Assembly: GCF_001306055.1 (NCBI RefSeq)
Contig: NZ_LGHJ01000026.1
Location: 1 to 12,786 of the forward strand
Origin: Bellilinea caldifistulae
Lineage (GTDB): Bacteria > Chloroflexota > Anaerolineae > Anaerolineales > Anaerolineaceae
Length of the DNA: 12,786 nucleotides
Direction: 5' to 3'
The position numbers and the translations under genes are program-made. The notes beneath the pieces were generated by a model that worked only from the letters and a program-made list of their open reading frames with translations, did not search any database and was not told the DNA's origin. Positions 1-7,855 of the stretch are shown piece after piece. Position 1 is the stretch's first letter. Each line of letters starts with the position of its first letter.

Positions 1-225
1 GCAGTAAGCCATGGCTTGCCGCACTCGCACATCAGATAGAATTGGATGCGGAGTGGAAAAGGACTGTTCTTCTGTAGGCTGTTTTTCAACTTCAACAACC
101 TTTTCAACCACTTCCGTTTTGACAACTTCTTTTTCAACTTCAATGGTCTCGACAGCTGGCTGACAAGCACTTATCACCAGTGATACTGCAATCAGCAGCA
201 CCCAAACAAGGTTCAAGCGTTTCAT
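1..225 (-). CDS. Extracellular solute-binding protein, family 5 (Opp/Dpp/Nik-type) lipoprotein; N-terminal 75 codons only, continues off the left edge
   Basis: My reverse-complement translation from ATG 225..223 gives MKRLNLVWVLLIAVSLVISACQPAVETIEVEKEVVKTEVVEKVVEVEKQPTEEQSFSTPHPILSDVRVRQAMAYC. It has a signal peptide with lipobox ISAC, then an E/V/K-rich linker. The SDVRVRQAMAY motif is typical of the start of mature SBP_bac_5 proteins. Weak SD AAGGAA lies upstream. The ORF track omits it because it has no stop in the window. Confidence 0.75.
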   Translation of the reverse strand, partial: MKRLNLVWVLLIAVSLVISACQPAVETIEVEKEVVKTEVVEKVVEVEKQPTEEQSFSTPHPILSDVRVRQAMAYC

Positions 226-4097: not shown

Positions 4098-4179
4098 ACT
4101 TGATTTTTACGAAAAGACAATCAAATTTGTAATATTATACTTGATTGAATGTGTATAATAAATAAACATTATACGATAT

Positions 4180-6177
4180 ATGTTCCCCTCAAAAGTCATT
4201 ATTGCCTCCACAGATTCATCTCTCAACCACACATTGGTAAATTTTCTCCAAAAATCGGGTTGGGTGGATATTCAAATTGCTCGCTCATTTGATCATCTTT
4301 TAGAATTTTGCTGCCTGACCGATCAGGAAATTCTTATTTTTTTATATCCCCCAGCCCCTTCATCATGGCAGTTGCTCGAATCACTCCAATCCCTTAGAAG
4401 AAAATCCAAAGCCTTACTGATATTAATCCTTGATCCCAACCAGATTGAAAACCAATCACACAATGCTTTAGGAAAGTTGATTGACGGTTTTCTTCTTCAA
4501 CCAGTCAACGAGTATTATCTGAATGCCACCCTGATGATGGCCAGAGAACGAAGACAACGGGAATTGGATCTATTGAAAAGCGAAGAAAAATTTCAACGTC
4601 TTTTTCTTAAATCCAATGACCCAAGTCTTTTGGTACTCAATCAAATCATTATTGACTGCAATCAGGCGGCACTCAACCAACTCCGCGCAGAACGCCGGGA
4701 AATTCTTGGCAAATCGCTAGCAGATCTTTCACCCGAAATTCAACCGGATGGTAATTTCTCGGTTAATCAAGCCGATTTCTATACGAACGAGGCATTGAAA
4801 ACAGGGTTTATTGAATTTCGATGGCTTCATCGGCGGTTTGACGGCAGTCAATTTCTTGCCGAAGTGTCTTTGACCGCAATCCCCTATGCGGGGGATTTGG
4901 CTTTGTTTGCCAAATGGCGGGATGTAACCGAAATCGAACAGTACAAAAAATCCCTGCAAATGAGCGAACAACGCTATCGCCAACTTTTTGAAACCATGTT
5001 GAATGGTTTTGCGCTTCATGAAATGATTTTTGATGAACACCACAAACCCGTAGATTATCGTTTTATTGCGGTAAATCCGGCTTTTGAAAAGTTGACCGGA
5101 CTATCAGCGGATGCCATTCTGGGAAAAACAGTTCTTGAGGTATTGCCGAATACCGAACCATACTGGATAGAAACCTACGGAAAAGTTGCCTGGAGTGGTG
5201 AACCGGTGTTGATAGAAAATTACTCGCAGGAATTGGATCGGTATTACCGGGTTTTTGCGTTTTCTCCCGTCAAAGGCCAGTTCGCAACCTTGTTTGAGGA
5301 CATTACCATCCAAAGAAAAAACGAACGCTACCAATCGGCTTTACTACAACTTTCGGAAAAAATTCGGCAAGCTTACACCACGGAAGAGATGGCTCAAACC
5401 ATTGTTCATACGATTGGCTTGATATTAGAGTTAGAGACAGCAGCCATTGCATTGAAATCACCCGAAAACGCCGACAAATTCCGGTTTGTTTTTGGAACCG
5501 GTAAGGCAAAAGAGTGGATCGGAGCCGAATTTACAAAGGATCAGGGTATAACCGGTTACACCTTACGCAGTAAAACTCCTTATTTCCAAAACAATTTAGC
5601 CAACGATCCATATTATCTCCGTGACCAGCCGCAATATTATCACCCATTTGTAGCTGCCGTACCGTTAATCTCCGGAGAGGATCCCATTGGAGTACTTCTG
5701 CTGGGAAGAAACAAATCTTTTACCGATACGGATCAACTGATTGTTACTTCCATGAGCGAGCTGATCGGTAATGCTCTTCAAAGAATGCTTCTTCAGGAAA
5801 AGACTCAGCAAACCGTGGACTACCTGTCTGCCTTGCGCAAAATTGACTTGACCATCACCCTCGGCAGAGATTTGGGAGACCGTTTGAGCGTTTTACTGGA
5901 AGTTGTTGTCGAACATCAAAAAGTGGATGCAGCCAGCATCTGGTTGAAAGAACCGCAAACCGATTTTTTCAACCTTGCAGCAATTCGAGGATTTCGATCA
6001 GGTACTCTTCCACTACCGACTTCACCTTATCCGGGAATAACGGGCAGTCCCAATCAATTCTTGCACCTTCAAAATCAGGAATTGCAATCCGCACTGGATG
6101 GGGAATTTGGACAAATTATTCGGAAGGAAGGATTTACCGATTATATGGGAATTCCTCTAACTACAAAAAAAAAATGA
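4180..6177 (+). CDS. Signalling protein, 5' fragment: pseudo-receiver, PAS, PAS, GAF, and first part of GAF2; the reading frame ends inside an A10 run
   Basis: The 665-aa ORF has a REC-like N-terminus, two PAS modules (SEEKFQRLF..., SEQRYRQLFETMLNGFALHE...) and GAF-like segments (GITGYTL..., AAVPLISGEDPIGVLLLGR). It ends GIPLTTKKK* in the middle of a GAF beta strand. Confidence 0.85.
   Translation: MFPSKVIIASTDSSLNHTLVNFLQKSGWVDIQIARSFDHLLEFCCLTDQEILIFLYPPAPSSWQLLESLQSLRRKSKALLILILDPNQIENQSHNALGKLIDGFLLQPVNEYYLNATLMMARERRQRELDLLKSEEKFQRLFLKSNDPSLLVLNQIIIDCNQAALNQLRAERREILGKSLADLSPEIQPDGNFSVNQADFYTNEALKTGFIEFRWLHRRFDGSQFLAEVSLTAIPYAGDLALFAKWRDVTEIEQYKKSLQMSEQRYRQLFETMLNGFALHEMIFDEHHKPVDYRFIAVNPAFEKLTGLSADAILGKTVLEVLPNTEPYWIETYGKVAWSGEPVLIENYSQELDRYYRVFAFSPVKGQFATLFEDITIQRKNERYQSALLQLSEKIRQAYTTEEMAQTIVHTIGLILELETAAIALKSPENADKFRFVFGTGKAKEWIGAEFTKDQGITGYTLRSKTPYFQNNLANDPYYLRDQPQYYHPFVAAVPLISGEDPIGVLLLGRNKSFTDTDQLIVTSMSELIGNALQRMLLQEKTQQTVDYLSALRKIDLTITLGRDLGDRLSVLLEVVVEHQKVDAASIWLKEPQTDFFNLAAIRGFRSGTLPLPTSPYPGITGSPNQFLHLQNQELQSALDGEFGQIIRKEGFTDYMGIPLTTKKK
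6165..6174 (+). other. A10 homopolymer at the junction of the two reading frames of the HD-GYP gene (frameshift or slippage site)
   Basis: Frame 1 stops at TGA 6175-6177. Frame 2 is open from 6161 and reads LQKKNDWGILQLWKRSEIRPTFEWMNFLEMLAGQAAIAIED, which is the expected continuation of the GAF domain. Confidence 0.9.
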
Positions 6178-6232
6178 TTGGGGAATTCTCCAGCTTTGGA
6201 AACGTTCAGAAATCAGACCAACTTTTGAGTGG

Positions 6233-6901
6233 ATGAATTTTTTAGAAATGCTGGCCGGTCAGGCCGCCATTGCAATTGAGGACAGCCAATTACTATCGGA
6301 TCTCCAGTACCACATCAACGAATTGCAAACCGCTTACGATACAACCTTACAGGGATGGGCAAAAGCTCTCGAAATTCGCGATGCCGAAACCCAAAACCAC
6401 AGCCAGCGAGTTACGCAAATCACGCTCGCACTGGCAAAGAGGTTGGGAGTTGATGAAACGCAATTACCGCATATCCGGCGGGGAATACTACTCCATGATA
6501 TTGGCAAAATGGGTATTCCTGATTCGATCCTGAACAAGGCCGGTCCCCTGACGCCCGAAGAATGGGAAATTATGCGTCGCCATCCTCAAATGGCCTATGA
6601 TGTCCTCTCCGGAATTCCCTTTCTGAGGCCGGCGCTTGACATTCCATATTACCACCATGAAAAGTGGGATGGTAGCGGTTATCCGCAAGGGTTGAAAGGC
6701 GAGGAGATACCGTTGGCTGCCCGGATTTTTGCAGTTGTGGATGTTTGGGATGCCTTATTATCAGATAGACCCTATCGCCCGGCGTGGGAAAAAACCAAGG
6801 TAATATCCTATTTACGCGAACAGGCTGGAAAACATTTCGATCCAAAAATTGTGGAGGTATTTTTAGAGTTAATTTTAGAAGAGGAAGAAAAAAACGATTA
6901 G
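6233..6901 (+). CDS. Signalling protein, 3' fragment: end of GAF2 plus an HD-GYP domain (c-di-GMP phosphodiesterase type)
   Basis: HSQRVTQITLALA, LLHDIGKMGIP and HHEKWDGSGYP are the diagnostic HD and GYP motifs. The open frame extends upstream to 6161, so ATG 6233 is probably not a real start. Confidence 0.85.
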   Translation: MNFLEMLAGQAAIAIEDSQLLSDLQYHINELQTAYDTTLQGWAKALEIRDAETQNHSQRVTQITLALAKRLGVDETQLPHIRRGILLHDIGKMGIPDSILNKAGPLTPEEWEIMRRHPQMAYDVLSGIPFLRPALDIPYYHHEKWDGSGYPQGLKGEEIPLAARIFAVVDVWDALLSDRPYRPAWEKTKVISYLREQAGKHFDPKIVEVFLELILEEEEKND

Positions 6902-7353
6902 TTTTGAGGCAATTTGACCGGCACAATCAATTCGACTTGCCCCTGATTTTCAAAAATTAATGTGATATTGATCTTCTGAGACGGCAACACATCCTGATTA
7001 AGATTTCTCAATCGAACCGATAAGCCGGTTTTTGGAGAAAGCACAACTTTCTCTCCTGGCAGTAGGCGAATTTCCTTACCTTCAAAACCGATAATTTCCA
7101 CCTCTTCACAAATTTCGCTAAAACCCCCTATCAATGCATCCTCGACCTGCCCCTCATTAATAACCTGAAAATAAACAGGCGTATCACTGCCAACTGGGAT
7201 ATGATAAGCATGCTCAGACATCTTGTCCGAATATGCCAGGAGTGCAGCCTGGACCCACGCATCAATGATTTTTATGTCACCAGCCTGGAAAACCGTACAG
7301 CCGCTCAAGAACAACAGGAGAAAAGCCAGTGCAGCTACAATTCGTCTATTCAT
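6898..7353 (-). CDS. Lipoprotein with PCu(A)C/DUF461-like fold, canonical Cu ligands absent
   Basis: The track ORF starts at GTG 7401. ATG 7353 is preferred because it yields MNRRIVAALAFLLLFLSGC, a signal peptide with lipobox LSGC. The mature part follows the PCuAC pattern (IIDAW..., YFQVINEG..D.LIG, VEI, LPGEKVVLSP, ITLIFENQGQVELIVPV). Family assignment is by eye. Confidence 0.6.
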   Translation of the reverse strand: MNRRIVAALAFLLLFLSGCTVFQAGDIKIIDAWVQAALLAYSDKMSEHAYHIPVGSDTPVYFQVINEGQVEDALIGGFSEICEEVEIIGFEGKEIRLLPGEKVVLSPKTGLSVRLRNLNQDVLPSQKINITLIFENQGQVELIVPVKLPQN

Positions 7354-7372
7354 GGCTATGCGAATTTTTAGA

Positions 7373-7855
7373 TCAGATGGACTTTTCCACAATACGACCA
7401 CCGCGCACTGTAGCCCCCACCACCAATCCCGCTGAAATCAAAACTAGATTCTTGATGATGTACTGGCCTTCGAGCGTCGGAGCGTACGGAAAACGCACAA
7501 AGGTTTCTGCAGGGAATAACACCAGCGGCGTCAGTGTACCTGCCATTTGTAGAAAGAGCAACAGTAAGGTTGCTCGCAAAAACTTTCCGGAGATTAAACC
7601 CAAACCGATCAGGCATTCCCATAACGCCAGTAATGGCACTGAGATCTCACTACCAATCAATCCGAACGAGAGAACCTCAATCGTTTTTGCGGCTAGGCCT
7701 TGAGCCGGACTTAAGCCCGGAAAAAACTTCAACACACCAAACCAGAAAAAATTGATCCCAAGGCTGATCCTCAAGAAAGTGATCGAATAGCGCGCCATGA
7801 AACCGGTAATCACTGGATCAATTCGATGGAAAATGGTCATCACACGGTCAATCAT
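7373..7855 (-). CDS. Small polytopic membrane protein, DoxX/DUF417-like
   Basis: ATG 7855 is preferred over the track start at 7876. SD GGAGAGG (7863-7869) lies 5 nt upstream, and the ATG sits 1 nt after the ABC gene stop. The product has about four hydrophobic segments (LRISLGINFFWFGVLKFFP, LALWECLIGLGLI, LLLLFLQMAGTLTPLVLF, IIKNLVLISAGLVVG). Confidence 0.6.
   Translation of the reverse strand: MIDRVMTIFHRIDPVITGFMARYSITFLRISLGINFFWFGVLKFFPGLSPAQGLAAKTIEVLSFGLIGSEISVPLLALWECLIGLGLISGKFLRATLLLLFLQMAGTLTPLVLFPAETFVRFPYAPTLEGQYIIKNLVLISAGLVVGATVRGGRIVEKSI

Follow-up and report, generated by a model that had tools for sequence, protein, structure and literature searches.

The window analysed here, 12,786 bases in length, is the whole of contig C22 of the 3.66-Mb, 31-contig, 99.7%-complete genome of Bellilinea caldifistulae GOMI-1. 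This strain came from a thermophilic digester and is an anaerobic thermophile of the class Anaerolineae. The forward strand of the window carries a PAS-GAF-GAF-HD-GYP signalling gene that is interrupted by ten consecutive A residues (A10, 6165–6174), and no longer homopolymer occurs in the window. The upstream open reading frame (ORF; 4180–6177) starts at the ATG at 4180 and encodes 665 amino acids, made up of an N-terminal part of ~135 amino acids without a Pfam match, two PAS domains, a first GAF domain (GAF1), and the first three quarters of a second one (GAF2). It ends with the residues ...GIPLTTKKK and is closed by a TGA stop codon (6175–6177) lying directly 3' of the run. From 6161 onwards the +1 frame is open; it reads NDWGILQLWKRSEIRPTFEWMNFLEMLAGQAAIAIED... 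from 6173 and reaches its stop at 6899–6901. The continuation of the gene in this frame (6173–6901, forward strand) holds a complete HD-GYP domain, preceded by the final ~35 residues of GAF2 and a linker. Both the ending of the 665-amino-acid ORF at the A10 run and the open adjacent frame leading into an intact HD-GYP domain had been described in a first-pass annotation of this DNA, and sequence and translation agree with that description. Within the continuation, gene callers annotate a separate HD-domain gene of 222 amino acids (6233–6901, forward strand), whose ATG corresponds to a GAF2-internal Met that is kept in all orthologues. Depending on the caller, the pieces at the locus are 665 amino acids plus either 222 or 217 amino acids.

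Pfam searches identified PAS, PAS, and GAF domains in the upstream frame and HD_5 (PF13487) in the downstream frame. The HD_5 match (E value 7e-43; 146.7 bits against a cut-off of 27.2) covered profile positions 5–170 of 170, and the HD motif (LLHDIGK) and the HHExxDGxGYP motif (HHEKWDGSGYP) were both present in the translation. Removing one A from the window yielded an uninterrupted gene of 906 codons, as had been proposed, and gave exactly the 906-amino-acid protein P0131 that is encoded by a near-identical strain. The +1-frame continuation corresponds to residues 664–906 of P0131, except that the codon including position 6486 specifies Ile where P0131 has Thr. P0131, which represents the intact allele, gave the same full-length HD_5 match, and its GAF2 domain spans residues 564–699. 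Since the break falls at residue 664/665, it lies about three quarters through GAF2, with ~35 residues lost; the proposed location inside GAF2 therefore stands, but not its placement in the middle of the domain. By family, the unbroken PAS-PAS-GAF-GAF-HD-GYP gene is predicted to encode a sensor-linked phosphodiesterase of cyclic di-GMP (c-di-GMP).

We compared the locus in four sequencing runs, all in the form of contigs, which drop minor variants. In SRR24079451 (X2), a hot-spring metagenome, a 30.9-kb contig with a depth of 23.7 matched the window with 99.3% identity over 7 kb and had exactly one A fewer at 6165, leaving nine (A9). This contig encodes the single 906-amino-acid protein P0131, which reads ...PLTTKKNDWGILQLWK... 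across the site. The same one-A deletion was found in a second run (X5) on a single contig with a depth of 2.8, which is weak by itself, so that the point is carried by SRR24079451. In DRR198553 (X1), no letter was missing at 6165. The tract is thus polymorphic in length between close strains while the rest of the gene is intact. The hot-spring strain also had two extra T residues at window position 1205, which is intergenic and lies upstream of a gene for a B12-binding-domain protein (1275–2930).

In the sister species of the same genus, the gene was continuous across the site. One of them (G009) had an uninterrupted ORF of ~908 amino acids; in the other (G007) the orthologue is divided over two overlapping contig ends (C152 and C71) and contains a run of masked N inside the HD-GYP domain, so that its full integrity cannot be judged. 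The codons at the site were ACA AAA AAG AAT in both sister species and ACA AAA AAA AAT in the A9 strain, with one A more in the window. The comparison of run lengths that had been suggested therefore returned A9 in the close strains and an interrupted run, A6GA2, in the sister species. In the protein database, P0124, P0126, P0127, and P0128 were 906–908 amino acids long, 60–73% identical, and all read PL(I/V)TKKNxWG at the site. All five homologues of 906–908 amino acids were in one frame. The shorter matches in the database were the cluster from the locus itself (665-, 222-, and 217-amino-acid pieces) and otherwise only the 648-amino-acid P0125, and a search restricted to proteins of at least 1165 amino acids returned generic multi-PAS proteins. 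Orthologues arranged as two stably separate genes, which had been named as the finding that would speak against a broken gene, were not found; every orthologue was one gene.

The A10 run was found in more than one assembly. The exact 665-amino-acid product is also encoded on DF967971.1 (assembly GCA_001050215.2, a single scaffold of 3,698,317 bp), and the window and its neighbour contig C7 were 100% identical to this scaffold over 7,998 and 21,035 bases, respectively, with A10 present in both assemblies. The GOMI-1 genome was reported from MiSeq 2x250 sequencing at 180x with assembly by SPAdes (PMC4574363), and no second genome paper on the strain turned up in a search of the literature. DF967971.1 contains no N at the point where C7 and C22 meet, although the assembly of the window breaks there, indicating that these are two different assemblies of one strain. 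C22 (window 1–127) and C7 (1–127) share a 127-base overlap in opposite orientation. DF967971.1 and both metagenome contigs run gap-free from one to the other, so that the left end of the window is an assembly break and not a biological one. The biocathode metagenome DRR198553, from 2019, provided a 44.8-kb Logan contig with a mean depth of 72, which carries A10 and encodes the same pair of ORFs of 665 and 222 amino acids. It differed from the type strain by two single-nucleotide polymorphisms (SNPs) in 13,141 bases, and the two strains are therefore not the same clone.

A genome-wide census of homopolymers gave no sign of poor assembly. The 3.66-Mb genome contains four A/T runs of at least 10 bases and 13 of 9 bases, and the A10 described here is the only run of at least 9 that is bordered on each side by a long open frame. 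We scored, as a crude frameshift signature, a long open frame ending at a run together with another long one starting there. Among homopolymers of 6, 7, and 8 bases, this signature occurred at 0.85%, 0.63%, and 1.9%, respectively, versus 0.84% at random positions, so that it was not enriched at homopolymers across the genome. The matches were mostly ordinary operon junctions; the C8 and T8 cases that were inspected were ordinary gene ends or junctions, and intact ORFs contain a G9 run, a C9 run, and another A/T run of 9. With A10 present in both assemblies of the strain and in DRR198553, and with no such enrichment, we consider A10 a genuine allele that is unlikely to be an assembly slip. The longest homopolymers of the genome were T23 (C18:30070–30092) and T16 (C30:175225–175240). 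The T16 run is outside any long open frame, and the T23 run, found after 14 codons of a long minus-strand open frame, may sit just upstream of, or at, a gene start.

The codons of the sister species, the A9 strain, and the window suggest a simple history of A6GA2 to A9 to A10. In this scheme, a synonymous AAG to AAA change would have fused the ancestral A6 and A2 stretches into A9, and strand slippage would then have added one A in one lineage. Judged from this codon comparison, the A9 tract itself appears young. We consider it probable that A10 is a genuine slippage insertion that breaks the 906-codon gene and is confined to the lineage of GOMI-1 and the near-identical strain of the biocathode metagenome. 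The best reading is an ordinary young slipped-strand frameshift allele with no new recoding device. Among the three explanations offered by the first-pass annotation, a recent inactivating or phase-variable mutation is thereby supported by the A9 of conspecific strains and the A6GA2 of the sister species. A sequencing or assembly error is unlikely, and expression through transcriptional slippage is physically plausible on A10, with the lack of conservation speaking against a programmed device. The further likeness to a +1 recoding context is not supported.

The default product of the A10 allele would be the 665-amino-acid fragment, with the HD-GYP frame orphaned. As the encoded fragment lacks an output domain and has an incomplete GAF2, the allele is predicted to be null or strongly hypomorphic. 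At least 10 HD-GYP-like paralogues were matched by the DNA of this gene, and 21 sequences with an HD..GK motif were found in the genome; with so many paralogues, the loss of this one would likely be tolerated. The repertoire of c-di-GMP phosphodiesterases is large for a 3.7-Mb genome.

The two SNPs that separate the A10 strains were both nonsynonymous and both within this 2.7-kb gene, a placement that two random SNPs would share with a chance of ~0.04. At position 6486 (forward strand), the type strain has a private T that changes ACA to ATA and Thr to Ile three residues before the HD dyad, where C and Thr were found in all four compared runs and in all orthologues. Of the 21 HD..GK-motif sequences of the genome, 17 have Ala or Gly at the position of this Ile, and just one other carries a bulky aliphatic residue there. 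At position 4789 (forward strand), the window has the ancestral G (Glu) and DRR198553 the derived A (Lys). The placement of both SNPs inside the gene fits relaxed constraint after the frameshift, a hint that comes from a very small sample of two SNPs. Compared with the hot-spring strain, the gene had 12 nonsynonymous and 10 synonymous differences, versus one and 10 in the two upstream genes.

Runs of this kind have known consequences in transcription and replication. In many bacteria, selection against coding A/T runs begins at ~9 nt, and runs of 9–10 A are hypermutable; the A9 run in dnaX of Thermus thermophilus gives ~50% slipped product (PMC1088944). In Citrobacter rodentium, tssM1 has A11 before a stop codon and the gene is rescued by transcriptional slippage (PMC4256274). 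With the threshold of about 9 A/T taken from PMC1088944, the A10 at 6165–6174, lying at a frame junction, is long enough to count as a slippery run. Since RNA polymerase slips on such runs, some transcripts with nine A and some full-length protein of ~100 kDa would be expected here. By analogy with these cases, it is plausible that some full-length protein is made through RNA polymerase slippage on A10. Minority transcripts losing one A, or ribosomes sliding on the run, could provide it, and such rescue would be leakiness of the mutation and not a programmed device.

Explanations other than a chance frameshift were weighed against these data. A homopolymer sequencing or assembly error, in which the strain truly has A9 and a whole gene, is improbable. 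Long homopolymers are classic sites of indel miscalls, and A10 was inspected in contigs and not in reads. However, the MiSeq 180x assembly, the separate assembly of the window, and the independent metagenome with a depth of 72, whose strain differs by two SNPs, all show A10; contig-based assembly returned A9 for the same tract in X2 and X5, and homopolymer frameshift signatures were not in excess. We regard as most improbable of all a stable split into a 665-amino-acid sensor and a stand-alone HD-GYP enzyme of 222 amino acids translated separately from the ATG at 6233. Both ORFs are annotated by gene callers, and stand-alone HD-GYP proteins exist as a class. However, the cut falls inside GAF2 and not between domains, the ATG at 6233 is the conserved domain-internal Met of all orthologues, and none of the orthologues is split. 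Upstream of 6233 there is only a weak purine patch (GAG..GG) with poor spacing for a Shine-Dalgarno motif, although the start of the parent gene is also without a clear one, so that this last argument is soft and not decisive. Programmed transcriptional slippage, in which A9, A10, and A11 transcripts would deliberately give a truncated sensor and a full-length phosphodiesterase, also has little probability. It would agree with the fully open downstream frame with intact catalytic motifs, with a thermophilic host like Thermus, and with an A10-then-stop arrangement that matches the anatomy of tssM1 (A11 and a stop; PMC4256274) and dnaX (A9 with nearby stops; PMC1088944). However, the run and the two-frame layout, whose conservation defines programmed slippage, are not conserved among orthologues, because conspecific strains have an in-frame A9 and the sister species an A6GA2 in one frame; for this reason the locus does not belong to the programmed-slippage class. 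A private Thr to Ile change was gained beside the HD motif in the downstream frame, and RNA folds of 6105–6164, 6175–6250, and 6120–6220 gave z scores of -0.01, -0.47, and -1.21 versus shuffled sequences, none of which was significant. Pairing of GGGAATTCC with GGGGAATTCTCC across the run was considered as a stimulator and rejected, as it was not significant against shuffles. The stop codon placed after the run had also been likened to a +1 recoding context. A stop is indeed in place as in prfB, but AAA would have to re-pair on AAU, which it does poorly, and no Shine-Dalgarno-like stimulator was present upstream of the run (CCTCTAACTAC); together with the lack of significant structure and of conservation, this speaks against a prfB-type programmed +1 frameshift.

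Reversible phase variation is a serious rival, even though we consider it unlikely. Here A9 would be ON and A10 OFF, with changes between them by slipped-strand mispairing during replication and with habitats favouring different states. Strains sharing 99.3% identity have tracts of different length in an otherwise intact gene, and runs of 9–10 A are hypermutable (PMC1088944). A digester isolate and a biocathode community carried the OFF allele; the ON allele came from a hot-spring sample and from one run whose habitat is not recorded. However, only two states were seen across two or three lineages, which a one-off mutation fits equally well. The tract is also young and absent from the sister species, and long coding A/T runs are scarce in the genome, which shows no pattern of such loci. 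Somewhat more doubtful still is the extended proposal that the A9/A10 tract adjusts how much of one sensor-linked c-di-GMP phosphodiesterase is made, acting as a reversible switch whose effect RNA polymerase slippage softens, with OFF favoured in reactors and ON in hot springs. Several observations nevertheless count against a simple young frameshift allele. A length difference between very close strains is also the pattern of a reversible switch. A10 is known from contigs and not from reads, which leaves room for a systematic miscall or a mixed A9/A10 population; the window's assembly may be a re-assembly and not an independent sequencing of the strain, and no library type is recorded for DRR198553. 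When amino-acid changes were polarised with outgroups, each A10 strain had ~3 shared and one private derived change versus three in the A9 strain, with five ambiguous. Because the changes are split about evenly between the lineages, the sensor part may simply be fast-evolving in this species, and decay is not demonstrated by the polarised changes. Contigs of a metatranscriptome run (X9) covered most of the gene at a depth of 2.5–4.5 but not 6123–6332, a hole that is itself no evidence. On balance, we favour the ordinary frameshift allele.

In the surroundings of the gene, the ATG at 4180 is preceded by an AT-rich stretch (4150–4182) without a recognisable Shine-Dalgarno motif. At its 3' end, the HD-GYP frame shares four bases (6898–6901) at the stop codons with a convergent LpqE-like gene on the minus strand (6898–7401). 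A gene encoding a 983-amino-acid dCache-HAMP-PAS-GGDEF-EAL protein lies ~9 kb from the left end of the window, on contig C7 (L029:12855–15806, type-strain record), and adds another gene for c-di-GMP turnover to the neighbourhood.

For annotation, these results mean that the two adjacent ORFs of the type strain (665 amino acids and 222 or 217 amino acids) are one frameshifted PAS-GAF-GAF-HD-GYP gene, and that the pair should not be read as an output-less sensor and a stand-alone phosphodiesterase. The locus is a new example, not described before, of a familiar type of event, and a new mechanism is not suggested. It offers a clean small example in which a synonymous change makes a hypermutable run and the run then breaks the gene, with both alleles available in public data. 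If the tract switches, or if slippage rescues the gene usefully, the locus would be a handy natural system for studying RNA polymerase slippage in a thermophilic Chloroflexota. If a reversible switch were true, it would be the first case of phase-variable c-di-GMP signalling in the phylum, in a host that belongs to the filamentous thermophilic Chloroflexota.

The locus can be compared with four known systems. It resembles the HD-GYP c-di-GMP phosphodiesterases (HD_5, PF13487) in the whole-length profile match and in both catalytic motifs of the downstream frame, but differs in that the domain is severed from its sensor domains and start codon and carries Ile beside the HD dyad where the orthologues carry Thr. 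In its working it is like the many other frameshift alleles known from homopolymers. Homopolymer frameshift pseudogenes and contingency loci share with it a one-base change in the length of a mononucleotide run, variation between close strains, and a truncated product. Classic contingency loci usually control genes for surface structures, whereas the gene described here encodes a cytoplasmic signalling enzyme. As in tssM1, a long A run lies directly before a stop codon with a C-terminal domain in the other frame, and slippage could restore the frame; in tssM1, however, experiments demonstrated slippage as well as both products and their ratio, and a second species shares the device, while here the DNA alone is known and conspecific strains carry a plain in-frame gene. 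As in dnaX of Thermus, a coding A9 run in a thermophile is accompanied by nearby stops in the other frames, a layout shared by the A9 allele; in dnaX, however, the run yields two functional subunits, while the A9 described here would be a recent synonymous by-product that is absent from the sister species. The likeness to tssM1 and dnaX is thus limited to anatomy.

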